Shown in pieces: positions 1 through 30,745 of a DNA stretch of 64,000 nucleotides. The notes beneath the pieces were generated by a model. The model was given only the letters and a program-made list of their open reading frames with translations. It did no database searches and was not told the DNA's origin. Each line of letters starts with the position of its first letter. Position 1 is the stretch's first letter. The DNA comes from Candidatus Moraniibacteriota bacterium (GTDB lineage Bacteria; Patescibacteriota; Minisyncoccia; Moranbacterales; UBA2206): assembly GCA_026396175.1 (NCBI GenBank), contig JAPLXG010000013.1:65267-129266 (forward strand), written 5' to 3'. The position numbers and the translations under genes were made by a program.

Positions 1-328
1 TTGGAATAAGTCCCAATTGTTCTCGCAATGAGGCATTTTGATTTTTTTCTTCTTGCAGGCTAGCCACCTGCGCCACCAAAGAATTATTTTCCCGAGAAAG
101 TTCCGCGTTATCTTTTTTTATTTCGGAAATAGAGGTCAAGAAAGCAGCCGTCTCTCCGATTTTTTGACTCGCTCCATAGAATACTTTTTGAAAAGGAAGC
201 GCGACAGTCAAAAAAATTCCCCGCACGGGATTCATAATCCCGCTGGGATTAAAAAAAATCAAAAGCGCGCAAATAATCATCGTAACGACTAGCTTGACTA
301 TTTTCGATGTAAAATATTTTTTAGGCAT
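1..328 (-). CDS. mreC: rod shape-determining protein MreC (partial; C-terminal part lies beyond window start)
   Basis: Minus-strand ATG at 326-328, 4 nt after the mreB stop. Translation MPKKYFTSKIVKLVVTMIICALLIFF... has an N-terminal TM helix then a coiled-coil-like segment (AELSRENNSLVAQVASLQEEKN) typical of MreC. Position is immediately downstream of mreB. Not in the ORF track because there is no stop inside the window. Confidence 0.6.
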   Translation of the reverse strand, partial: MPKKYFTSKIVKLVVTMIICALLIFFNPSGIMNPVRGIFLTVALPFQKVFYGASQKIGETAAFLTSISEIKKDNAELSRENNSLVAQVASLQEEKNQNASLREQLGLIP

Positions 329-331
329 AAT

Positions 332-1417
332 TTAATCGAACGATTTTTCGTGCTGATTTTCCACTAAAATATCGCGCAAAGCGTCAATATCCTCCAGCAC
401 AATACCTGTCCCGCGCACGACCGCCGTGAGCGGATCTTCCATCATTCGCACCGGAATTTCCGTGTGATTGGCAATTAGCCGATCAATTCCCCGAATCAGG
501 CCACCGCCGCCAGCCAGGATTATGCCTTTTTGCATAATATCTGAAAGTAGTTCCGGTGGCGTTTCTTCCACGGCTGTTTTGATGTTGTTGATGATAATGC
601 GAATCGAGCGTGACAGCGCTTCGCGCGCTTGATCATCAGTGATGGTCACTTCTTTCGGCAGTCCCGTCACCAAGTCCCGGCCACGCACCTGCATTTGCCT
701 TTTTTCTTTCTGCACGCACGCGCTGCCAATCGCAATTTTCACGTCTTCCGCCGTTTTCTCTCCAATGAGCAGATTAAATTCATCCCGACAATAACGCACA
801 ATATCTTCATTCATTTCATCGCCGGCAATGCGCAAATTGCGTGAAACTACAATTCCGCCCAAAGAAATAACTGCGATATCAGTCGTTCCTCCGCCAATGT
901 CCACTACCATATTACCAGAAGCTTCTTGCACCGGCAGACGCGCGCCAATCGCCGCCGCCATCGGTTCATCGATCAGATAGGCCTCACGCGCACCAGCATT
1001 GAGTGTCGCATCAATCACCGCTCTTTTTTCCACCTCAGTCACGTCCGATGGAATGCCCACAATCACGCGCGGACGGGGAAAGAGCGTAAAACTGCCGCGA
1101 TGCACTTTGTCGATAAAATATTTGAGCATCTGCTGAGTAATTTCAAAATCACTTACCACGCCGTCTACCAGCGGTCGGACTGCCACGATATGTCCGGGAG
1201 TTTTTCCCACCATTTTTTTGGCTTCTTTCCCAATAGCTAAAATTTGTCCGGTTTTTTTATTAAGCGCTACCACGGAAGGCTCGTTAATCACAATTCCCCG
1301 CCCCTTCACATAGACCAAGGTATTTGCTGTTCCCAAATCAATTCCAATATCTTTGGAAAATCCTCCAAAGAGATCACCCGATATTTTTCTCGATAGATTT
1401 TTGAGTTTCTTTAGCAT
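332..1417 (-). CDS. mreB: rod shape-determining protein MreB (actin-like ATPase)
   Basis: 361 aa. Motifs DLGTANTLVYV, VVDIGGGTTDIAV and the phosphate/adenosine motifs of the actin/Hsp70 fold are present, matching MreB along the full length. Confidence 0.95.
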   Translation of the reverse strand: MLKKLKNLSRKISGDLFGGFSKDIGIDLGTANTLVYVKGRGIVINEPSVVALNKKTGQILAIGKEAKKMVGKTPGHIVAVRPLVDGVVSDFEITQQMLKYFIDKVHRGSFTLFPRPRVIVGIPSDVTEVEKRAVIDATLNAGAREAYLIDEPMAAAIGARLPVQEASGNMVVDIGGGTTDIAVISLGGIVVSRNLRIAGDEMNEDIVRYCRDEFNLLIGEKTAEDVKIAIGSACVQKEKRQMQVRGRDLVTGLPKEVTITDDQAREALSRSIRIIINNIKTAVEETPPELLSDIMQKGIILAGGGGLIRGIDRLIANHTEIPVRMMEDPLTAVVRGTGIVLEDIDALRDILVENQHEKSFD

Positions 1418-1439
1418 AAATAATAACAGTTAATCTGAT

Positions 1440-2759
1440 TTAGAAAAGCTTAGCAATATCTTTATACGTCACCGCAAGCATAAGCAGCATAAGTAGCGCA
1501 AAAAAGAAAGTATGAAAAGCCTGCTCCACTTTTGGACTGACCGGCGAGCCTTTTATTGTTTCGATAAGCACAAATAAAATTCTTCCGCCGTCCAGTGCCG
1601 GAATTGGCAAGATATTGATGATGCCCAAATTGATACTAAGAATTGCCGCGAATTGGATGATATACACCAAGCCGAGATTGGCCACTTCTCTGGTGAGAAT
1701 GGCAATTCCCACTGGCCCAGAAACATCCGCTGAAGATCCGTGCCCAGCAAAGAGCATTTTAATGAGACCAAATAGTCCGACAAAAATCATCATTGTCATG
1801 TCCCTTACTGCCAAAAGCCCCTTCCAAATTGCCGCGTACCACGGATATTTAACTAACACTGTTTCCGAAAGCGCGATTCCCAGCGCACCTTGTCCCTGCG
1901 GCGCATCAACTCTCGGTGTGCCCTTCAGCTCCAATTTTTCCTTGCCCCGCAAAATTTCCAAAGTGATTTCTTTTCCTCGGTTAGCATTCACATAATCTTG
2001 CACCTCTTTGACATTTTTTAAATTAATGCTTTCTCCCGCTGGATCTTTTTGCGTCTTGGTAATTTCATCTCCAACTTTGAGCCCCATGAGACCCGCCGGT
2101 GCATCAGCGATTATCCCAGAAATTTGAATCTTGGAGTTGGCATTATTAGTATTTGCATCAGGGCTAATTTCTTCCGGCGCGCCAAGCATAAATGTAACCG
2201 AAAGCAAAATCCACGCGAAAATAAAATTCATCGCCACTCCCGCCGCCAAAATCTTAATCCGCTTCCAAGCGCTTTTGTTGGCAAAGCTATCTTCATCACC
2301 CGCATTTCCGCCATCTTCGCCTTTGATCCGCACAAAACCACCCAAGGGAAACCAATTCAAGGAATAAATCGTTCCGCCGCGAAATTGTTTTTCGTGCGCT
2401 TCTTGCAAATCTTGCCTCTCATTTTCATCATCGCCATCTTTATTGCCCCAAATAATTCTCCATTTTCCCACCGGCACATTTTTTTCCACATTGTGAAATT
2501 TTTCCGTGATGGTTTCTTGGATGATTTCTTCATCGCCAATTTTGATATCAATTTTTTCCCTTTCCACGCTTTCCATCTCGAAAAATTTCTTCTGCTCTTG
2601 ACCACTGATAAATTGGATGCCAACAATTCTTGGTGGAAAACCAAAACCAAATTCCGGCGCCTTCACGCCATTCCGCCGCGCCACCATAAAATGCCCCAAC
2701 TCGTGGACAAAAACGAGGAGCCCTAAAATTATGATGAAAATCAAAATCGCTACGAACAT
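1440..2759 (-). CDS. rseP: RIP site-2 zinc metalloprotease RseP/YaeL family
   Basis: 439 aa. HELGH zinc motif at the N-terminus, an internal PDZ-like segment, and the C-terminal LDGGR motif (PIPALDGGRILF). Confidence 0.9.
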   Translation of the reverse strand: MFVAILIFIIILGLLVFVHELGHFMVARRNGVKAPEFGFGFPPRIVGIQFISGQEQKKFFEMESVEREKIDIKIGDEEIIQETITEKFHNVEKNVPVGKWRIIWGNKDGDDENERQDLQEAHEKQFRGGTIYSLNWFPLGGFVRIKGEDGGNAGDEDSFANKSAWKRIKILAAGVAMNFIFAWILLSVTFMLGAPEEISPDANTNNANSKIQISGIIADAPAGLMGLKVGDEITKTQKDPAGESINLKNVKEVQDYVNANRGKEITLEILRGKEKLELKGTPRVDAPQGQGALGIALSETVLVKYPWYAAIWKGLLAVRDMTMMIFVGLFGLIKMLFAGHGSSADVSGPVGIAILTREVANLGLVYIIQFAAILSINLGIINILPIPALDGGRILFVLIETIKGSPVSPKVEQAFHTFFFALLMLLMLAVTYKDIAKLF

Positions 2760-2981
2760 AGTAGTTTATATTAAAAAATTATTTTATTTTTTGTTTTCAC
2801 CTTCGCAGGTTCAGCTTTCCTCGCCCTTGCAAGTTCGGGTATCTTCGCCCTTGCAGGTTCAGGCGTCCTCGCCTGAACCACATATTCCTGGGAGAGCTTA
2901 CTATTTTTAAATAGCCTTGCCAGAACTAGGTGGTTCAATCGAGACGATTAAACCTGCTTGAAAAGAATATTTTATCTAACC

Positions 2982-3527
2982 TCAAACCTGCATAATCTCC
3001 GCTTCTTTTTTCTTTCTAATCTCTTCAATCATCGCGTTATATTCTTCCACCACTTTTTGCAATTTTTCCTTGCCCTGAAACTTATCATCGTCCCCAATCG
3101 CAAGTGCCTGAATTTCATCCGAAATATCTTCACGCAATTTCCGCACGGCGACGCGCGCACCTTCTGCTTCAAGATTTAGAATCTTCACAAATTCTTTGCG
3201 TCGCTCTTCGGTCAGTGCCGGGATATTGATTCGGATTAATATTCCATCATTCATCGGATTGAGTCCCAAATCAGATTCCTTGATCGCTTTTTCGATGAGC
3301 GCCAAAGTACTTTTGTCCCAAGGAGAAATCACAATCGTGCGCGGTTCCGGGACAGACACGCTCGCCACCTGCTTCAGTGGGGATTTCGCGCCGTAATAAT
3401 CCACCGTCAAGTCGTCCACGAGTGCAGTTGAAGCTCTCCCTGTCCGTACCTTCCCCAAATTATCCTTGAAGTGCGCAATAGTTTTTTCAAAATTAACTTT
3501 GCTTTTTTCAATTAGTTCTTTGTACAT
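2982..3527 (-). CDS. frr: ribosome recycling factor
   Basis: The ORF extends to 3578, but conserved RRF sequence starts at the internal Met (MYKELIEKSK...). Matches include KVRTGRASTALVD, VPEPRTIVISPWD and LTEERRKE. Confidence 0.9.
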   Translation of the reverse strand: MYKELIEKSKVNFEKTIAHFKDNLGKVRTGRASTALVDDLTVDYYGAKSPLKQVASVSVPEPRTIVISPWDKSTLALIEKAIKESDLGLNPMNDGILIRINIPALTEERRKEFVKILNLEAEGARVAVRKLREDISDEIQALAIGDDDKFQGKEKLQKVVEEYNAMIEEIRKKKEAEIMQV

Positions 3528-5729: not shown

Positions 5730-6251
5730 TTATCTGAGAATTCTTTTGTGGATCAGAAACATAAACACCAGCGGAGCCAGCATCCAAAAAAAAGCGAAAT
5801 TGGGCGAAACTAGATAATCATAGGAGCTGGGAGAAACATAGCCTAGGGCGATTTTTTTCGGCATAATAGTTAGCGCCACACTGAGCAGTAGCATCACTTC
5901 CAGAAAACTCATCACAAACACTCGCCAGAGAAAACCTTTGCCGGAACCAGAAAGTTGAATCTCAAACATTTTCTTTCCCAGCACGGTGAGTAAAATTATT
6001 ATGCCAAAAAATAGCATCAAGCTATAGGTATAGTCAGGGAGAATCCCCTTGGGAAAAACGCCCAGGAGCGCGACAGAAACATAGATATTGATAAGCACCG
6101 TGATTAACTTGAAGCGGCCAATCGACATCCCGAACACAAAACTAATGAGCGCGATGGCTAGAAATAGCATCACGTCCTGAGATGTTTTTGAGGAAAGTCC
6201 CAATTGAGAAAAAATCAAACTAAGATTCATTTTGGTTTTATCCCCCACCAC
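5730..6251 (-). CDS. hypothetical polytopic membrane protein
   Basis: 173 aa with four or five hydrophobic helices and no recognisable motif. Confidence 0.45.
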   Translation of the reverse strand: MVGDKTKMNLSLIFSQLGLSSKTSQDVMLFLAIALISFVFGMSIGRFKLITVLINIYVSVALLGVFPKGILPDYTYSLMLFFGIIILLTVLGKKMFEIQLSGSGKGFLWRVFVMSFLEVMLLLSVALTIMPKKIALGYVSPSSYDYLVSPNFAFFWMLAPLVFMFLIHKRILR

Positions 6252-6513
6252 TTTTTTGCTCGCACTTATTAAGTGAACAGGGAATGTTTTGTTAGTTTTT
6301 TTATTAGTTTATCAAAATAATTCTGCAGATAAATAAAACTCCCAAAGCAAAAAAGTGGTAAGGGATGAATTATTTTTATACTCTTATCTTACTCTCTTTT
6401 TATTTTTTTGTCACGAAGAAAAATTACATCAAGAGGCAGGCAAACTCGAACCTGCAAAAGCTTCAAAATTGAGCCCTTCCTGTTCACTGATTCCTGTTCA
6501 TTGTTCACTGTTT

Positions 6514-7629
6514 TTACTCCCCCAACTGGCCCAACTCCTCAAGCAATCTTTTTTGCTCACGGTTTAGACGTTTCGGAATCCGCACAATCACTTTCACGAT
6601 CTGATTGCCACGCGATCCCGAATGCAGATTGGGTACACCCTTGCCTTTGACGCGAAACTGCTCGCCCGACTGCGTCCCGGAAGGAATTTTCAAAGTTAAG
6701 CGACCATCAATCGTTTCAATGATCGTCTCGCCACCCAGCGCCGCGACCGAAAAAGGAATTTCCACTGAACTCAAAATATCCTGTCCATTTCTTTTAAATT
6801 CCTTATGCGCCCGGACATGGACATTAATATATAAATCACCAGGAACTCCACCAACTCCGCCCGCTTCTCCCGCGCCTTGCATCGAAAGCGTCTGCCCATC
6901 AGCAATTCCCGCCGGAATCTCAATGTCTAATTTATTCTCTGCCATCACCCGACCATCCCCTCTGCACTTAGAGCATTTCTTTGAGATAATTTTGCCAACA
7001 CCGTGACAATCCGGACACTCTGCCACTTGCGAAAAACTGCCGAAAAAACTACGACTGATTTTTTGCACGCGCCCCGCTCCACCGCAAGTCGCACAAGTCT
7101 TGAGTTCACTGCCTTTTTCACCGCCAGCACCATCACAACGATCACAAATTGTGCTTTTGCGTAAATTGATTTGTCGCTTTGCGCCACTGACCATTTCAGC
7201 AAAATCTATTTCCACATCCACTTGAATATCTTTTCCGCGCTTGCGGCGAGTTGTACTGCCGCCGCGACCACCACTAAAAATTGAAGAAAAAATATCTTCA
7301 AAGTCTCCTCCATCAAAACCGAAGCCCTGACTCGAAAAGTCCCAGCCCGAGGCGGGTCCGCCTTGGGAGGAAAAGCCACCAAAACCTTGTCCACCGCCCG
7401 CACCTGACCTCCCCGCTTGATCAAATGTCTGACCATATTGGTCATATTGCGAACGTTTAGATTTGTCGGAAAGCACCTGATAGGCCTCGTTAATTTCCTT
7501 GAACTTCGCCTCGTCACCACCAGTCTTATCTGGATGATGCTTGTGCGCCAACTTGCGATAAGCTTTTTTGATCTCATCGTCGCTGGCGCCTTTGGAAACG
7601 CCTAAAATATTATAGTAATCGTTAGACAT
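6514..7629 (-). CDS. dnaJ: chaperone DnaJ
   Basis: J-domain YYNILGV...HPDK. G/F-rich region. Four CxxCxGxG zinc-finger repeats ([32 protein letters not shown]). C-terminal domains present. Confidence 0.95.
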
Positions 7630-22703: not shown

Positions 22704-22872
22704 TCGTTTAGCGCTTAGGTTTATTTTCCAACTTTCATCTTTATAATATACTAAAAAACCAACCGCTTGTCGAGAAGCTGGATTTTATAAAGACTTCCTT
22801 TGCCCCCCCACTATATTCGTAGATTCGCATTCATTCGTAGATTCGCATCGGTCTTTCGTAGTTTCGAATCGG

Positions 22873-23601: not shown

Positions 23602-23772
23602 TTATTTTTTGAAAGTTATTTTTTAGTCTACAATGTGTTATGTGATGTCATTTTTTTATTCCTTATTGTAATTTTCTCAATCCGCTTTTTTATTCAAATT
23701 GTAAATAAGTTTTTTTGATTTTGGTTTTGGGCAGAGGGGTAGGGGTGAATGCCCAAAATCAAAAACTCCTTG

Positions 23773-24390
23773 CTACTTCTTTTTTAAAATAATTTTTCCT
23801 CTCGTTTTTCTATTCTCATCGTTTCCGTAAAAGCCACTAATCTCTTTTGGCTTACACTCTTCAAAATTAAGAATGGCAAAGCCACAATGTCCCACAAAAC
23901 CAGTATTTGCTAGGTCTGTTTCTGTCGGGTTATTTGTATATTTATAACCCAAAATCCATTCTTCTTTATTGTTTTGATTTTTTTCAAAATAATTAGAGGA
24001 GCTTTTAAATTTTGATTGATCAAAATTGCCAGAGTATATAAAACCGCCATCTGTCTTTTTGATTTCTATTTTGCCGATTCCTTTGGTATTGTATTGTGAA
24101 TTTTCCCAATCATATTTATAAGAACTAGAATATTCCATTTCCCATTTTCCCGTGATGTCTGGATATTCTTGAAATCCAATGAATATAAATATTTTTTTGA
24201 TTAACCAATGCTTATTCCATAAATATTTTTCGTAAATAAAATTTAGAAAATAAAGAATCAAAAAAATTATAGCCGAGACGATGCTGTATTTCCAGAAATT
24301 TAGCCTGGGAAATCTATTGCTTACTGCATAAAATGCAAAAGTCAATAATACAGATATCGAAACAATTTTTTTCAAATCTAATTTTGTCAT
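23773..24390 (-). CDS. 2TM membrane protein with beta-rich C-terminal domain; candidate effector (Cap15-like/SLATT-like) of the adjacent NTase
   Basis: Start MTKLDLKK at 24390 overlaps the upstream stop (ATGA). Two TM helices (IVSISVLLTFAFYAV, IVSAIIFLILYFLNFI) are followed by a soluble Gly/Tyr/Lys-rich domain of about 125 aa. The region is AT-rich. Confidence 0.55.
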   Translation of the reverse strand: MTKLDLKKIVSISVLLTFAFYAVSNRFPRLNFWKYSIVSAIIFLILYFLNFIYEKYLWNKHWLIKKIFIFIGFQEYPDITGKWEMEYSSSYKYDWENSQYNTKGIGKIEIKKTDGGFIYSGNFDQSKFKSSSNYFEKNQNNKEEWILGYKYTNNPTETDLANTGFVGHCGFAILNFEECKPKEISGFYGNDENRKTRGKIILKKK

Positions 24391-25319
24391 AGCTTTTCTA
24401 AAATAAGACCGGCACTTTTTGAGATAAATATTTTTGCATTGTCTAACCCCCATCCATTTTTAGATAAAAACAGTAAGTCTTGACCATTGGCACATTTATA
24501 ATACTGCAATGATCCATTTTCTGAATCGTTAAGTGTATTTTGCAATACATTAATCACGATGCTTTGATAGCTTCCGTTAAATACGGGAGCAGGACAATTA
24601 TAAATCAGATTTTCAATGAAATATGACGGAGCAAGCTTTGCATCCATTTCATTTTTTTCATTTAGTTTTTTTCTGATATTTTTAAAAATTCTTATTGAAT
24701 CTTTAAATTTACCCTCCGTATCGCGATTGAGAGCTTCACAATTTTTTTTATGTTCTTTTGGATAATTTATAATTAAATCATTTGTTTCTGTGTTGTAAAA
24801 TTTTATGCCAGCTACATATTGATCAGTCGTATAAAAAGTAAAACGCCCATACTTTCTGTGATGAAAGGCAGGAATTACATCAGCATTTACGCGTAAAGTA
24901 TTTTTAGGTATTTTTATGCTTTTTCCCCCATACTCAATGGTCGTTCCCGAAAAATATTTTTGCAAAGAAGCATAAACATCTTTTTTGAATTGAGCGAATT
25001 GATATGCGCTTTTATTTGAGTAAAATGAGTGAAAATCTTTCTTTTCTTCTTCTGTTAATTGGTTTATATCATACGAAAATACAGAATTTAATTCAATCAC
25101 CACATCAACATCGCTATCTTCGGTAATATTTGTGCTATTTGCATATGATCCTTGCAGATAAATTTCATAGTTTTCTGCCTTAATTTCATATCCATGATTA
25201 TTTTTTGCAAATTCCGATAAATAAGCCGCCAAAGCTTTTCTAATTTCTTCGTGGGTGTATTTATATTTTGTTGCAGTTGGCGATGAAGCCCATGATTGTA
25301 GTTGTTGCTCCGATATCAT
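24387..25319 (-). CDS. minimal Pol-beta-superfamily nucleotidyltransferase, SMODS/CD-NTase-like
   Basis: 310 aa. GS-x11-DVDVV (LQGSYANSTNITEDSDVDVVIE) is followed by a third acidic strand (VNADVIPAF). The start overlaps the vsr stop (ATGA). The pairing with a downstream 2TM protein fits CBASS-like modules. Confidence 0.6.
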   Translation of the reverse strand: MISEQQLQSWASSPTATKYKYTHEEIRKALAAYLSEFAKNNHGYEIKAENYEIYLQGSYANSTNITEDSDVDVVIELNSVFSYDINQLTEEEKKDFHSFYSNKSAYQFAQFKKDVYASLQKYFSGTTIEYGGKSIKIPKNTLRVNADVIPAFHHRKYGRFTFYTTDQYVAGIKFYNTETNDLIINYPKEHKKNCEALNRDTEGKFKDSIRIFKNIRKKLNEKNEMDAKLAPSYFIENLIYNCPAPVFNGSYQSIVINVLQNTLNDSENGSLQYYKCANGQDLLFLSKNGWGLDNAKIFISKSAGLILEKL

Positions 25320-25726
25320 ATAGCTCCTTTTATAAATAAACTTAATTTTTCAGCACTTTTGTCAATCCTTTTAAGATCATGCTCCCAAATTCTAAAAATT
25401 TTCCAACCTAATTTTTTATATTGTCTATTAACCTCCTTGTCTCGTTCTTTGTTCCTGTCGATTTTTGTTTCCCAAAATTTTTTTCGAGTTTGAGGCATTG
25501 AACCATGCTTTTTGCATCCGTGCCAAAAACAAGAATCTATAAAAATAACGGTTTTGTGTTTGGGCAAAACAATATCAGGCTTCCCGAAATATTTTGTCGA
25601 ATTTTTACGATAACGAAACCCCGCTTTCCATAATTTTTTCCGAAATTCAATTTCTATCTTACTGTCCTTGCTTCGAACTTTTGACATAATCTCACTGCGT
25701 TTCTTTTTGGAAAAAATATCAGTCAT
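25316..25726 (-). CDS. vsr: very short patch repair endonuclease
   Basis: 136 aa. RSEIMSKVRSKDSKIEI, GKPDIVLPKHKTVIFIDSCFWHGC and WE.K match the Vsr family. Confidence 0.85.
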   Translation of the reverse strand: MTDIFSKKKRSEIMSKVRSKDSKIEIEFRKKLWKAGFRYRKNSTKYFGKPDIVLPKHKTVIFIDSCFWHGCKKHGSMPQTRKKFWETKIDRNKERDKEVNRQYKKLGWKIFRIWEHDLKRIDKSAEKLSLFIKGAI

Positions 25727-25734
25727 GACTGTTT

Positions 25735-26823
25735 TTATTTCAGAAATCTGATTTGTAAATTCAACTTGAAAAACAACTTGCCGTTTTCTTCATACAATTC
25801 ACCATAGCCATATCTGGTCGTGCTTGGTGCGTCAAATTTGGTGTTTTCATACAAATAAGAACGAAATTCATCTCGATTATACAAATGGTAGCATACCACA
25901 TCTCCATTTTCTTTTACCACAATATAGCCTCCTTGCGCTTTCGAAAAACCATCCCATGGTTTGCTGGGCACCATGCCGAGCGCAATCGCATCTAAAAAGT
26001 TTTTTATTTTGTATTCGTAATTCGTGAGCGATAATCCGAATTTTTGTTTCATATCCTCATTTTTGGAAAGCTCTTTTGTTAAATCAGCAACGGTTCTGTG
26101 TGTATTCGAGAAAAAATCCAAAAGCATTTGAGCGATAAATTCCGGCAATGCAGTATCAATCATTTTCATATTGAATTCGAATTGTTCATTTGAAACTCCA
26201 GCATATCTGAAAACCCCGCCCTGTTCCGTGATTTTGCTTACACGATCACGAATTTGCGCATTTGTTTGAATCGCATTAACTTTTGAAAGGTCTCCACTGA
26301 ATTCACTGATTTCATAAATGAAATTTGTTGTTTGTCCCGGGTTTAACAACGTAGAAGCTCCGCCAACCATAGACTTGATGGAAAAACCGAGCATCGGCAT
26401 TGTTTTTGAAATTGTGTCATAAATAATTGCCACCAAATCAGCTTTCTTTGCATTGCTGGCTTTAACTTTTGTGCAAAGCAATTCTTTCATTAATTCTTGC
26501 GCTTCGGGAATATTAAAAGAACGACTTCTTTCGTTTTTTATTTTTTCAAATATTTTCAAAGTTTTTTCCTTGAGTGAGTCATTGTTAAATTCTTTTAACA
26601 ATACGCCTTCCTCGTTGGTTATTAAAACCTTGGTTGCCGACTCAGAAATGTCATAAATTTTAGTTGATTCATCTTTTTCTTCTCTGATAATTTTATGAAA
26701 AACAAAAAACTTACCGTCAATTATTTCAAGATTTTTATCGGCAGCAAAAATCTTTCTTTCCTCTAAAATTTTTAGAAAAGCGTAAAATTCCGACCATTCT
26801 CCTTTGTTATTTCCTGTTTCCAT
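25735..26823 (-). CDS. putative type II restriction endonuclease (HpaII-like size and context)
   Basis: 362 aa with no recognisable motif. It sits between the C5 methyltransferase and vsr, overlapping the methyltransferase gene by 17 nt. The M-R-V arrangement mirrors known HpaII-type cassettes. The call rests on context. Confidence 0.4.
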   Translation of the reverse strand: METGNNKGEWSEFYAFLKILEERKIFAADKNLEIIDGKFFVFHKIIREEKDESTKIYDISESATKVLITNEEGVLLKEFNNDSLKEKTLKIFEKIKNERSRSFNIPEAQELMKELLCTKVKASNAKKADLVAIIYDTISKTMPMLGFSIKSMVGGASTLLNPGQTTNFIYEISEFSGDLSKVNAIQTNAQIRDRVSKITEQGGVFRYAGVSNEQFEFNMKMIDTALPEFIAQMLLDFFSNTHRTVADLTKELSKNEDMKQKFGLSLTNYEYKIKNFLDAIALGMVPSKPWDGFSKAQGGYIVVKENGDVVCYHLYNRDEFRSYLYENTKFDAPSTTRYGYGELYEENGKLFFKLNLQIRFLK

Positions 26824-28486
26824 ATTTTTTTAAAGTTTTAACTATTTCTTCAGCCACCGCTTGAATTGCCGGAACGGCAACTGAATTTCCAAGTTGCTTC
26901 ATGGCCTGAACCGATGAAAAATTTGGTGGAAATTCGTACCAATCGGGAAAACCTTGCATTTTTAATCCCTCTTTCGGTCCAAGCTGAACAATCTTTCCAT
27001 TAACTCTGTAAGCGTCCCAATTTCTGCGATCGGTTATTTTGCTTCCGCGCCCACCGACACGCAATGTAAATCCTATTTCCTTGTCGCATTTTCCATTGAA
27101 AATATCTGACAAGGTATATTTCAATTCCTTGATTGGTTCGGGAAATTTAAAATCTATCGAAGTATCCTTAAAACCAACCATGAAAAGACGAGGACGGTGT
27201 TGAGGTAATCCAAAATCAGAGGCTCTGACAATTTGCGGAAAGAAAGAATATCCCAATTCTTTCGTAATAACCCTTTCTATGGTTTTAAATGTTTTTCCAT
27301 CGTCATGACTTAATAGGCCACGCACATTTTCCAGAAAAAATGCCTTTGGCTTTTTTTCTTTAATTATTTTTACAATATCAAAAAACAAAGTTCCACGAGT
27401 TTCGCTAAATCCTTTTTTGAATCCGGCTTGAGAAAATGGCTGACAAGGAAATCCCGCTGTCAAAATATCAAAATCCGGGATATCTTTTGTTTTAATTTTT
27501 GTAATATCGCCAATGAAATTTCCAGAATCAAACATTTCAGGAGAAATTTTATAAAGATTGTGTCTGTATGTTTTTTGAGCGGGTCCGTCCCATTCTGATA
27601 CGAAGACACATTCCGCTCCTGCATTATGAAATGCAATATGGAAACCGCCAATACCTGCGAATAAATCTATAAATCGCAAATTGTCACTCTTCTTTTTGTT
27701 TTTTGCCATTGAGTTATTATAAAAATATAATTGATTTGCATCTACCAGCAAATCAAACAGGGAGGCTTGCGAGCCTTCCGCCACATATTCCGTGTTTGTT
27801 AATTCCACATTCTTCAAGTCACCAAGTATGCTATGCACCCCGTTTTTTGCAACAATTAAAAAATCGATAACATTTACGCCCATTAATTGCCCGGCTTCAA
27901 TTATCCTTTTTGCGACCTGCTTGTCCTGCTCACTTGGTTTCGGATCACCTGATGGGTGATTGTGAATAAGAATTACACCCGCTGCGTGCATTTCCAATCC
28001 GGGGGCAAAAATTTCTCGCGGGTGAATAATGCTTTTGTCCAATGTTCCGATTGAAATGGTTTCTTTTTTTATCAGAGCGTTACGTGCGTTCAAATAAAGA
28101 CAAATGAGATGTTCTTGTTTCTTGTCTTTTAAGTCCAAAACAAGATTAATGGCGTCTTGTGCTGACAAAATTAAATTATCCAAAGAATTTTGTTTGTTAA
28201 AAATTCTTCCGGTTAATGCGAGTGCTGATGAAATCTGCAACGCCTTCGCTTGTCCTATTCCTGAAATTTTCATTAAATCAGCAACTGAAACATTTAATAA
28301 ATTATCTCCAAATTTTTTGATAATCTTTTGTGATAATACTTTTACATTAGTGCCTTTAATCCCACTGCCAAGCAAAATAGCCAAAAGCTCGCTATCAGTT
28401 AAAGCATCCGGTCCTTTTTCCAGAAATTTTTCTCTGGGGCGATCAAATTTTGGTATATCTTTAATTTTAGGCATATTTGATGACAT
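26807..28486 (-). CDS. RadC-like JAB/MPN domain fused to DNA cytosine-5 methyltransferase (Dcm)
   Basis: N-terminal part of about 230 aa: HhH region (LMKISGIGQAKA), then JAMM motif HNHPSGDPKPSEQD. C-terminal part of about 320 aa: motif I FIDLFAGIGGF, motif IV GFPCQPFSQAG, motif VI ENV, and C-terminal motifs. The reading frame is continuous. Confidence 0.75.
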   Translation of the reverse strand: MSSNMPKIKDIPKFDRPREKFLEKGPDALTDSELLAILLGSGIKGTNVKVLSQKIIKKFGDNLLNVSVADLMKISGIGQAKALQISSALALTGRIFNKQNSLDNLILSAQDAINLVLDLKDKKQEHLICLYLNARNALIKKETISIGTLDKSIIHPREIFAPGLEMHAAGVILIHNHPSGDPKPSEQDKQVAKRIIEAGQLMGVNVIDFLIVAKNGVHSILGDLKNVELTNTEYVAEGSQASLFDLLVDANQLYFYNNSMAKNKKKSDNLRFIDLFAGIGGFHIAFHNAGAECVFVSEWDGPAQKTYRHNLYKISPEMFDSGNFIGDITKIKTKDIPDFDILTAGFPCQPFSQAGFKKGFSETRGTLFFDIVKIIKEKKPKAFFLENVRGLLSHDDGKTFKTIERVITKELGYSFFPQIVRASDFGLPQHRPRLFMVGFKDTSIDFKFPEPIKELKYTLSDIFNGKCDKEIGFTLRVGGRGSKITDRRNWDAYRVNGKIVQLGPKEGLKMQGFPDWYEFPPNFSSVQAMKQLGNSVAVPAIQAVAEEIVKTLKKYGNRK

Positions 28487-28725
28487 AAAACTTAACTGCC
28501 TGTATTATACCTTAAATAAATATAAAATAAAAATCGCTTTTTCTGCGCCTTTCAATAGCAGAAAAACACCCTAAACCACTCATAAAAGATAAAAAAACTT
28601 ATTTTTCCTTATTATAAAAAAGCGGATTGATAAAAAATATAAAAAGTAAAAAAAATATTTATCCGCAGTTCTATTATGGCACATTATTTTTTTGTGGTAA
28701 ATAAACAATCTAAAAACTCCCCTCT

Positions 28726-29367
28726 CTATTCTTCTTTATCCGTAAACACCACCAATCGCTGGGGATAACTTTTGGCGTCTTTATTCCAAGCTCCTTCGCA
28801 AGTGATGAGATTGAGGTGCGCTTTCCCATCACTTGAACTAAATATCTCCGAAGCGTCTGCGCCCGGTTCATAGCTTCGACTTTCACGCACCACAAAAGAA
28901 ATACTCGCGCCATCAGCATCTTCGATAGATAATTTATCGCCTTTGCTCAATTTATGCAGATTATCAAACACAGATCCTTTTCCATTTTTCCATGTTCCAT
29001 AATGGCCAGCGATAACCGCGCTGCCATTTTCCCCGGGACGAGTCCCCAGCTTGAACCATCCCACCTCATCCGGACCTTTTGGCGTATCCATTGCTCCGGC
29101 AGAAGTGAGGCCCAGAGATTCAACAGCGGAGTCAACGCCAATCCCGGAGATTTTGAGCCGCACCGGCACACCGACACTTCCTTGTTCTTGTTTTGGAAGA
29201 GTATTGATATTTTCGAGAGGCAACGCTAAACTATTTTGAACCCGTCTATCCCCGAGCGGCCGAATAAAGTAAAACAAAAATACGGCAAACAATACCGCTC
29301 CCGCGAAATTAACTGCTAACAATATTCGTCCAGTTAAGTTTTTTGATGAATACATAAATAATCTCAA
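28726..29367 (-). CDS. sortase family transpeptidase (class E/F-like)
   Basis: N-terminal TM anchor, catalytic His region (IAGHYGTW), the TLxTC-type motif LNLITCEG, and a conserved Arg near the C-terminus. Confidence 0.75.
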   Translation of the reverse strand: MRLFMYSSKNLTGRILLAVNFAGAVLFAVFLFYFIRPLGDRRVQNSLALPLENINTLPKQEQGSVGVPVRLKISGIGVDSAVESLGLTSAGAMDTPKGPDEVGWFKLGTRPGENGSAVIAGHYGTWKNGKGSVFDNLHKLSKGDKLSIEDADGASISFVVRESRSYEPGADASEIFSSSDGKAHLNLITCEGAWNKDAKSYPQRLVVFTDKEE

Positions 29368-29485
29368 AAAAAGTCAAACCAGCTTCGGTCCGACTTTTTT
29401 TGTTTACTAGAAAATCAAGTAGGCAAAAATTTTTAATTTCTCCCAGATCTCAGGCTAAAACAAAAACCGCTTTTATTCTTTTAAG

Positions 29486-30745
29486 CTAATTGGCGAAGGA
29501 ATTAAAAAACGAAGACACTTTTTGGATAACGGTTTCCCATAGACTGCTATTTTCTTCATCCGGACCAATTCCAGCATTTGGAAGACCAGGAACAGAAACG
29601 GTGACAGTCGCTTTCGCAGTATCTTTCACCTCCTTGCCATTGGTTCCGCGAACGGTCGCTGTATTTGTCTCAGTTTGAGAAACTATTTTAGTGCAAGTGT
29701 ATCGCCATCTTTCATTAGTATCCAGTTTTGAATCATGATCACCATCGCCGGAAACAAATTTTACCGGGCTGCATTTATCATCTTTGATTGATACAAACTT
29801 CAACGCATTATCACCCTCATTTCTCACGTCATATGTATAGGTAACCAGTCCGGGACCGGAATATAGGGCTGAGGGAGTGGCTCTTTTTCGAACGCTTATA
29901 TCAACGTGGTTACTATCATTGTCCTTATTATCATTTGATGAATCATCCGGAGCTTTGCACACTGCATTGGTAATCGTGTTGTGATCCAGCGTAACATTGC
30001 CATCGCGGGCTAACAGACTTCCATCAACTCTTGCGCCATTTGCCACCGTGATTGAGTTAAGAGCCAGAATGTTTCCCACAAACACCGCAGTTGTATTAAT
30101 AGTGGCTGTATTCACTCGCCAAAAAACATTGCAAGCCTGGGCACTGCCTATTAATTCCACTTCAGCACCATTCGGTCCGACAGTCAGTCCGGTTCCATCA
30201 AAACCCATCTCAAAAATAAACACAGCGTTGGAATCGCCTTGTCCATCAAGAATCAGATGACCTGCTCCTTCCGTAATCTGAAACCTGGTATTGGCAGAGG
30301 AATATACGCCTGGGCTCAATGTCTGACCACCCAATTCGGTGGGAATAATTGTCCCCGGCCCTTGCCCGCTTGCATCGTCATATGCAGTTTCTAAGTCAGT
30401 TTTCGCCTTGTCTACCAAGGTTTTATCTGGTGCGGTACCCTTAAAACATGATGTGTCAATACCATCACCTACGTATGCCGAATTAACGCCGTATATTGTA
30501 CTCACACCGCTCATTTGTGAACACCATAGTCCGATACCAGCAGCGGTAGCCGGGCTCAACCCGACATTTCCAGTAATAGCAGAAGCATGACCGGCATCAG
30601 TAATATTAGGGGTCCCGGCCAATATCGCAAAATCATCGGCTGTGCCAAGATCCACCTGCGTCGCGGCATTAACTTTTCCGGAGAAACCAAGCGCAGTCGC
30701 AAAAGCTAATACAACGACCATTGCAATCCAATTAAATTTTTTCAT
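29486..30745 (-). CDS. secreted surface protein with DUF3494 (ice-binding-like) and DUF11 domains
   Basis: Signal peptide. LGTADDFAILAGTPNITDAGHASAITGNVGLSP matches the DUF3494 N-terminal signature. A C-terminal DUF11-like repeat (TYTYDVRNEGDNAL...RWRYTC) follows, and then LPNAG near the end, a possible sortase signal. Confidence 0.65.
   Translation of the reverse strand: MKKFNWIAMVVVLAFATALGFSGKVNAATQVDLGTADDFAILAGTPNITDAGHASAITGNVGLSPATAAGIGLWCSQMSGVSTIYGVNSAYVGDGIDTSCFKGTAPDKTLVDKAKTDLETAYDDASGQGPGTIIPTELGGQTLSPGVYSSANTRFQITEGAGHLILDGQGDSNAVFIFEMGFDGTGLTVGPNGAEVELIGSAQACNVFWRVNTATINTTAVFVGNILALNSITVANGARVDGSLLARDGNVTLDHNTITNAVCKAPDDSSNDNKDNDSNHVDISVRKRATPSALYSGPGLVTYTYDVRNEGDNALKFVSIKDDKCSPVKFVSGDGDHDSKLDTNERWRYTCTKIVSQTETNTATVRGTNGKEVKDTAKATVTVSVPGLPNAGIGPDEENSSLWETVIQKVSSFFNSFAN

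Follow-up and report, generated by a model that had tools for sequence, protein, structure and literature searches.

A CdnE-Cap15 gene pair, very probably a type I CBASS, at the 3' end of a restriction-modification operon in a Candidatus Moranbacteria genome

The stretch of DNA analysed here (the window, 64,000 nt) comes from contig JAPLXG010000013.1 of assembly GCA_026396175.1, a Candidatus Moranbacteria genome from an uncultured bacterium of the Candidate Phyla Radiation (CPR), and it carries two adjacent genes, cdnE and cap15, which form a minimal type I CBASS (an antiphage signaling system based on cyclic oligonucleotides) of the CdnE-Cap15 architecture. We consider it very probable that the pair works as an abortive-infection system, in which a signal made by CdnE activates Cap15, and that it rides on a restriction-modification (R-M) cassette. 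Since this architecture is common and type I systems of this kind have already been characterised genetically, biochemically and structurally, the locus adds little as a CBASS; its unusual features are the lineage of its host and the setting of the pair, a repeat-bounded cassette linked to R-M. High densities of defence systems per megabase have been reported in surveys of CPR genomes, and no specific or experimental study of CBASS in CPR bacteria was found in the literature searched. The pair described here is a clean and intact example from an ultrasmall, uncultured member of that group.

A clade-E nucleotidyltransferase coupled to a Cap15 effector

The product of cdnE is a clade-E cGAS/DncV-like nucleotidyltransferase (CD-NTase), as judged both by sequence models and by predicted fold. 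The polymerase-beta (Pol-beta) nucleotidyltransferase signature to which an earlier note on this DNA had drawn attention is present in the motif GSYANSTNITEDSDVDVV, which corresponds to G57-S58-x11-D70-V-D72-V, and in the later motif NADVIPAF (N145-A-D147-V-I-P-A-F), which holds D147. In an alignment of 38 homologues, with 37-90% identity to the query, S58, D70, D72 and D147 are conserved in all members and G57 in 37 of them, and these catalytic residues align with those of RmCdnE, the c-UMP-AMP synthase of R. marinus. Residues 2-301 are matched by the oligonucleotide-cyclase models of PADLOC with E-values of 1.6e-88 (PDLC00788), 8e-66 and 1e-50, and PF26305 (CD_NTase_C) is the precomputed Pfam annotation of this exact protein and of all listed homologues. 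A sequence search of the Protein Data Bank (PDB) returned five significant matches (E <= 6e-23), all of them clade-E CD-NTases, namely RmCdnE (6E0K, 1e-46), EmCdnE (6E0M, 2e-31), EfCdnE (7x4c, 2e-27), LpCdnE and ClCdnE, and the sole further match, human OAS2, was marginal (E 0.036). The same placement was obtained from an AlphaFold2 model built on the 38 homologues (predicted local distance difference test score, pLDDT, 94): the Foldseek search of the PDB was led by 6E0K/6E0L (E 7e-26, TM-scores 0.84/0.88, root-mean-square deviation (rmsd) 2.4 A), matches 1 to 14 were all CdnE structures (Rm, Ef, Cl, Lp, Em and a STING-associated CdnE), and these were followed by CdnD, CdnC, cGAS, CdnG and a cGAS-like receptor.

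The 205-aa protein encoded by the second gene is a Cap15 (S-2TM-beta) effector by sequence and by predicted fold. Against PF18153 (Cap15_CD_rec) it scores 42.6 bits (cutoff 31.2, E 9e-11), the match taking in profile positions 2-122 of 122, and it also matches eleven '2TM' CBASS effector models of PADLOC, the best of them with an E-value of 7e-21. Its AlphaFold2 model (pLDDT 84) has transmembrane (TM) helices at about residues 6-25 and 33-57, followed by a linker helix (62-71) and, at 81-204, a beta-barrel domain of eight strands, and Kyte-Doolittle 19-residue windows exceed 1.4 at 4-27 and 30-58 (maximum 2.07); the two N-terminal TM helices and the soluble domain of about 125 aa that had been proposed for this protein are therefore borne out by both the model and the hydropathy profile, the soluble domain being the C-terminal beta domain. 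The top three Foldseek matches in the PDB are the receptor domain of Yersinia aleksiciae Cap15 (7N34 and 7N35; E 5e-6 to 9e-5, target-normalised TM-scores 0.84-0.86, rmsd 2.5-3.3 A), a protein with the same organisation of two TM helices followed by a beta-barrel receptor, although sequence identity in the barrel is only 16-17%. A phmmer search of PDB sequences gave nothing meaningful, Cap15 structures being recovered by the fold search only. Across the alignment of twenty Cap15 homologues some aromatic and glycine positions never vary, and neither does the C-terminal motif E192-x-R194-K195-T196-R197-G198. The effector had previously been proposed to be either of the SLATT type or of the Cap15 type. 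The latter stands, and a SLATT identity was rejected, given that no SLATT model in Pfam matches at E <= 0.1 and Cap15_CD_rec is the sole Pfam match. Neither of the results that the earlier note had named as refuting its reading, placement of the two proteins in other families or a lack of conservation of the catalytic residues, was obtained.

The two open reading frames (ORFs), both on the minus strand, lie where the earlier note had placed them, with the TGA of cdnE overlapping the ATG of cap15 at 24390 as ATGA. The mechanical ORF list gives cap15 as a 226-aa frame starting at 24453, i.e., within cdnE; nearly all Cap15 homologues share a conserved MTK(L/V)(N/D)LKK start, which in the alignment coincides with the ATG at 24390, and the product is taken as 205 aa because of this homologue start and the ATGA overlap, the 24453 start being internal to cdnE. 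The same 4-base overlap is retained in a relative whose cyclase is 58% and whose effector is 70% identical, located in an entirely different neighbourhood. When adjacency was scored with a hidden Markov model (HMM) made from close effector relatives alone, a Cap15-like ORF abutted the 3' end of the cyclase gene in 64 of 85 loci (59 of the 80 that come from named genomes), and the CdnE clade spans many bacterial and archaeal phyla. When the window is compared with its three closest relatives (loci L006, L007 and L008), DNA homology begins exactly at the ATG of cdnE and stops 30-140 nt beyond the stop codon of cap15. Purifying selection on both genes is strong: dN/dS against L006 is 0.04 for cdnE and 0.02 for cap15, and it lies between 0.06 and 0.18 against more distant relatives where dS could be estimated (Cap15 of L007, and L003). 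Among viral sequences, thirteen IMG/VR contigs carry distant relatives of the CdnE clade, with 27-36% identity and none higher.

As had been anticipated for a type I-like system, searches with Pfam, PADLOC and NCBIfam found no Cap2, Cap3, HORMA, TRIP13 or type IV accessory gene, either in the operon itself or in the set of 31 ORFs annotated at about 6.5-42.7 kb, which comprise, besides the CBASS pair, R-M, very-short-patch repair endonuclease (Vsr) and housekeeping genes. The absence of accessory Cap genes near the pair therefore makes it a type I CBASS. A RadC-methyltransferase fusion encoded upstream is not regarded as a Cap3, because its RadC half passes the curated RadC equivalog cutoff, and the PADLOC JAB matches are weak and partial (best 7.6e-6).

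Predicted signal, mechanism and competing explanations

The closest solved relative of the window's CdnE is RmCdnE, a 3'3'-cUMP-AMP synthase with 36% identity; it differs at the remaining 64% of residues, and the window's enzyme has a longer insert after helix 2 (about residues 35-46). The two have in common the GS, DxD and D residues, a lid-1 Asn within NYPKxH (N166 in RmCdnE, N185 here), a donor-pocket cysteine (C252 and C276, respectively) and a residue other than R or Q before the conserved Trp. In RmCdnE, N166 hydrogen-bonds the acceptor uracil, and the substitution N166S changes the product to c-di-AMP. N185 is conserved in 37 of the 38 homologues and the lid-2 residue H190 in all of them, and a product with uracil at the acceptor position is accordingly predicted from the sequence. 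On the donor side, the di-pyrimidine synthases possess an (R/Q)xW motif that, with an acidic partner, shuts the pocket to purines (Yang et al. 2023, PMC10442399). ClCdnE, EfCdnE and LpCdnE resemble the window's enzyme in being encoded in type I operons with Cap15, in keeping the lid-1 Asn and in fold (TM-scores 0.81-0.85), but they have (R/Q)xW and the acidic partner, whereas N288-G289-W290 together with C276 fails the di-pyrimidine rule. W290 is conserved in 37/38 homologues and C276 in 29/38, the R/Q position is occupied by K, N or E in the family, and the RmCdnE counterparts are C252 and E265-Q-W267. Because Asn185 in lid 1 is combined with an open, RmCdnE-like donor pocket that lacks the (R/Q)xW-acidic gate, our best guess is that the signal would be a uracil-purine dinucleotide, most likely 3'3'-cUMP-AMP.

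A close functional parallel is the type I-B CBASS of Staphylococcus schleiferi, a two-gene operon (Ssc-CdnE03-Cap15) that defends staphylococci and in which the cyclase product activates Cap15 (Banh et al. 2023, PMC10686824). That system, like the one in the window, consists of a clade-E CD-NTase gene followed by one for a two-TM Cap15, has an R-M neighbour and lacks Cap2, Cap3 and HORMA genes. They differ in that Ssc-CdnE03 responds to a phage cabRNA and produces 3',2'-cGAMP, whereas the lid-1 Asn of the window's enzyme predicts a uracil-containing product, and in that the S. schleiferi pair is merely flanked by a type I R-M system, while the pair described here is translationally fused into an R-M operon of a CPR host (PMC10686824). 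More generally, type I operons most often pair cyclases of clades D, E or F with effectors of 2 or 4 TM helices, and such operons protect E. coli from double-stranded DNA phages.

Following these precedents, CdnE would be produced together with the HpaII-type R-M proteins and the Vsr encoded upstream, and phage infection would activate it to cyclise two nucleoside triphosphates into a cyclic dinucleotide. The activating cue, by analogy, might be a structured phage RNA or a late cue of virion assembly. The dinucleotide would be bound by the cytoplasmic beta-barrel of the membrane-anchored Cap15, which would then oligomerise, and the oligomers would disrupt the membrane, so that the infected cell would die before phage release. 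On this reading an R-M cassette bounded by inverted repeats carries the pair as a passenger at its 3' end, and a single transcription unit would provide layered defence. The direction of the signal, the disruption of the membrane and the antiphage function are all proposed here by analogy with characterised systems. Abortive infection in an obligate episymbiont also raises the question of who benefits from it.

Several observations weigh against this reading. A Pfam scan returned, apart from the generic NTP_transf_2, a SMODS match slightly short of its cutoff (24.9 against 26.5 bits), in contrast to the strong matches to CD-NTase-specific models and CdnE structures, and the term SMODS-like used in the earlier note says less than the evidence supports. 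The best NCBIfam match, to the equivalog NF053871 (DS2_2 anti-phage nucleotidyltransferase, a name whose origin was not traceable in the searchable literature), reaches 262.8 against a cutoff of 350, and NF041117 (CBASS_cyclase_b) 49.7 against 200; as judged from these scores the protein is outside both narrow equivalogs and inside the CD-NTase superfamily, its membership of which is unaffected. Two or three residues and a template of 36% identity are what the product prediction is built on, and 13 of the 38 relatives have at the R/Q position a K, which could act like R. The locus is known from sequence and models alone, in an uncultured CPR bacterium. Finally, S-2TM-beta effectors can work inversely, as does OptE of the Panoptes system, and because such effectors occur with either polarity we only infer that the nucleotide activates Cap15.

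This last point leads to the best surviving of three alternatives, all of which we regard as improbable. In a Panoptes-like inverse scheme, a decoy dinucleotide made constitutively by CdnE would hold the Cap15-like effector off, and its depletion by a phage sponge or nuclease would trigger killing. OptE is itself an S-2TM-beta protein and a Cap15 homologue of opposite polarity, other minimal cyclases have been reported as co-opted guards, and a constitutive synthase would fit constitutive cotranscription with the R-M operon. However, Panoptes synthases (OptS) are mCpol domains (minimal CRISPR polymerase, Palm/GGDEF-like) and not CD-NTases of the Pol-beta fold as found here, the CD-NTase-Cap15 pairs described in the literature examined signal positively, and the effector matches Cap15_CD_rec and the Y. 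aleksiciae structure best, which makes inverse signaling very unlikely. Still less likely is that the pair is a non-functional, decaying remnant carried passively by the mobile R-M cassette. The outer end of the upstream terminal repeat of the cassette has indeed diverged and the island is a low-GC import, but neither ORF is truncated, every catalytic and conserved residue is in place, their translational coupling is retained, and the low dN/dS values given above hold against close and more distant relatives alike. The least credible proposal, to which we give almost no weight, is that the enzyme belongs to another Pol-beta branch (antibiotic nucleotidyltransferases, MntA-type antitoxins or CCA-adding enzymes), lying beside an unrelated membrane protein and making no second messenger: it draws on the NTP_transf_2 match (1.1e-6) and on weak matches to MTPAP-like, Polbeta, cca_archaeal and MntA models, but these span only the catalytic core of about 40 residues and are far under their cutoffs (E 0.089 for MntA and 3.5e-4 for the CCA model), whereas the matches to full-length CD-NTase models and to CdnE structures extend over 300 residues, no antibiotic nucleotidyltransferase or CCA-adding enzyme is among the top 50 Foldseek PDB matches, and the neighbour is a Cap15 by sequence and fold, in a pairing kept across phyla.

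The restriction-modification operon and its inverted-repeat frame

The proposal of a two-gene pair was right with respect to coupling, yet the pair is not a free-standing unit. Because the ATG of cdnE overlaps the stop codon of vsr as ATGA, cdnE and cap15 are the last two of five tightly packed genes on one strand, in the order RadC-M.HpaII, R.HpaII, vsr, cdnE and cap15, the first of which, the fusion of RadC to a methyltransferase, overlaps the gene for R.HpaII by 17 nt. Fusions at the N-terminus of a C5 methyltransferase occur beside other CdnE-Cap15 pairs too: RadC/JAB and UPF0758_N domains are found in the window, and a LexA DNA-binding domain with an S24 peptidase in three other loci (L003 to L005; in L003 at 5942-7528 on the minus strand). 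The association with R-M genes was surveyed in the 56 genome loci (among L006-L085) with enough flanking sequence, by searching two ORFs on each side of the pair with PADLOC at 1e-8. Upstream of cdnE, 517 PADLOC families were matched, with type I methyltransferases in 9-11 of 108 ORFs and specificity subunits in 9 of 108, against 110 families downstream, where the commonest match, to type I restriction endonucleases, was found in 2 of 101 ORFs. This upstream enrichment and the sparse downstream side lead us to conclude that the pair's habitual place is in an R-M operon, either within it or at its 3' end, and suggest that the pair is sometimes embedded between hsdMS and hsdR.

The operon is bracketed, in AT-rich intergenic regions, by a 65-nt imperfect inverted repeat whose arms lie at 23652-23716 and 28591-28655 and match at 48 of 65 positions, whereas 200 Markov shuffles of the same regions averaged 35 matches and never exceeded 41. 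Each arm is part of a larger terminal module, called UP or DOWN according to its side of the operon. The DOWN module holds the left arm, a 9-bp hairpin (UUUUGGGCA/UGCCCAAAA) and a terminal motif, GTTATGTGA, at 23637-23645 on the plus strand. The UP module holds the right arm and has an exact 37-mer in common with its counterpart in L006, in spite of the different cargo and chromosomal flanks of the two loci; its outermost 10 nt or so have diverged from the family terminus, most copies carrying GTTATGTGA at both ends. A 17-nt exact core of the arms is found, within the window, at the two island borders only, and the idea that the arms are a genome-wide motif was therefore rejected. Also rejected was the possibility that they are two copies of a palindromic terminator, since the best direct match is 33/65, against a mean of 35/65 in the shuffles of the inverted comparison; the fold of the DOWN module is not significant overall (z -0.84) and it has no U-run, which counts against a terminator as well.

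The same inverted-repeat design frames the pair in its three closest relatives with other R-M cargo, comprising a type II restriction endonuclease (REase_II) and an N4/N6 methylase in L006, a type II methylase and a 363-aa protein in L007, and a LexA-like gene, an Eco57I-like type IIG enzyme and an S subunit in L008. Scanning of metagenome contigs for the arm signature retrieved 20 loci (L100-L119), on which the 75-nt UP consensus and the 137-nt DOWN module were mapped. About 15 further cassettes framed by these modules were recognised on Moranbacteria-like contigs, most of them with R-M cargo and none with cdnE or cap15. Their recurrent layout is UP, two to five co-directional genes and DOWN, over 2-4.6 kb, and in L111 and L119 cassettes stand in tandem. 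The DOWN module is 94-99% identical in L111, L114 and L119 and 78-89% identical in other loci. Among the 49 ORFs of these cassettes there are 13 DNA-methyltransferase matches and endonucleases related to Tsp45I, EcoRV, HinP1I, TdeIII and MutH, together with Abi_alpha, Schlafen/AlbA_2, DUF6119 and radical-SAM genes. Particularly informative is L111, in which positions 9-3091 contain the same RadC-M/R.HpaII cassette with the same arms (84% nucleotide identity over 2.9 kb) without vsr, cdnE and cap15, the stop codon of the endonuclease gene leading directly into the DOWN module (98.5% identity). As the L111 cassette lacks it, the 1.96-kb vsr-cdnE-cap15 segment (window 23772-25733) represents either an insertion here or a deletion in L111.

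The cassette around the operon is probably mobile. No recombinase or transposase was found among the five cargo genes or within about 15 kb of the cassette, no direct repeat that could be a target-site duplication was seen at the ends of the window or L006 cassettes, and an exact look-up of flanking proteins recovered no island-free contig with ExoX next to the sortase. Independent Logan assemblies of the same strain break near both arms (L001, which equals window 23743-28567, and L099, which ends near 23687); these breaks fit excision, inversion or presence/absence heterogeneity, and equally fit low coverage of AT-rich DNA, and the exact 17-nt repeats alone would not break a k=31 graph. An integron/attC reading of the tandem cassettes was not adopted, given the inverted repeats on both sides, the conserved 5' module that each cassette has of its own and the lack of any integrase seen. 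The frame is a known kind of structure, because Furuta, Abe & Kobayashi (2010, PMC2853133) described transposase-less R-M units bounded by imperfect inverted repeats, which resemble the present one also in size (60/65 in X. oryzae and 65 nt here). In contrast to those units, the window's arms are members of a family that recurs in unrelated metagenomes with more than 90% conservation, with many cargos, CBASS included, and sometimes in tandem, and no description of a recurrent arm family with variable defence cargo in CPR bacteria was found in the searchable literature. It is tempting to speculate, although we hold this to be rather doubtful, that the UP and DOWN modules define, in Moranbacteria, a hitherto undescribed family of mobile defence cassettes that lacks a transposase, shuffles R-M, abortive-infection (Abi) and CBASS genes from one genome to another and stacks them in tandem, and that the CBASS has here been welded to the HpaII R-M-Vsr genes so as to be expressed, and perhaps mobilised or phase-switched, as a unit. 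In any event, the frame provides a concrete, testable starting point for asking how defence genes travel and come together in genomes where recognisable mobile elements are otherwise few.

Coordinates, host and flanking sequence

The coordinates of the operon and its terminal modules are collected in Table 1. Across about 23.6-29 kb the GC content is low (0.29-0.38), compared with 0.42-0.45 in the flanks, and the island is a low-GC import. The DnaK encoded in the window is 100% identical to a protein of a Candidatus Moranbacteria metagenome-assembled genome, and its next relatives come from Moraniibacteriota/Parcubacteria. The named-genome cdnE genes closest to that of the window are from a Moraniibacteriota bacterium (94%), a Patescibacteria group bacterium (83%) and Paceibacter (79%).

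Table 1. Genes and terminal modules of the cassette, in window coordinates
Feature	Position	Strand	Description	Supporting matches
cap15	23773..24390	-	205-aa two-TM and beta-barrel effector	
cdnE	24387..25319	-	310-aa clade-E CD-NTase, predicted cyclic dinucleotide synthase	
vsr	25316..25726	-	very-short-patch repair endonuclease	Pfam Vsr 1e-29; TIGR00632 131.8 bits (cutoff 97.85)
R.HpaII	25735..26823	-	R.HpaII-family type II restriction endonuclease	Pfam RE_HpaII 9.6e-110, full length; PADLOC REase_II 3e-91
RadC-M.HpaII	26807..28486	-	RadC(JAB)-C5 cytosine DNA methyltransferase fusion	Pfam UPF0758_N, RadC, DNA_methylase; NF000642 RadC 220 bits (cutoff 180)
DOWN	23635..23771	-	terminal module of cassette, 137 nt	
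UP	28587..28660	-	terminal module of cassette	

An Rfam scan returned three tRNAs and nothing else, and a scan for promoters and terminators gave counts not above those in shuffles. Two further observations concern the neighbourhood of the island. At 22815-22869, between the genes for a polyprenyl synthase and an ExoX-like exonuclease, a 16-nt unit (ATTCGTAGATTCGCAT) is repeated three times in tandem with spacings of 18 and 21 nt. On the opposite side, at 28726-30745 on the minus strand, the island is adjoined by a sortase gene followed by the gene for a secreted protein (419 aa) that has an ice-binding-like domain and DUF11/DUF7507 repeats and that the sortase probably anchors to the surface of the episymbiont.

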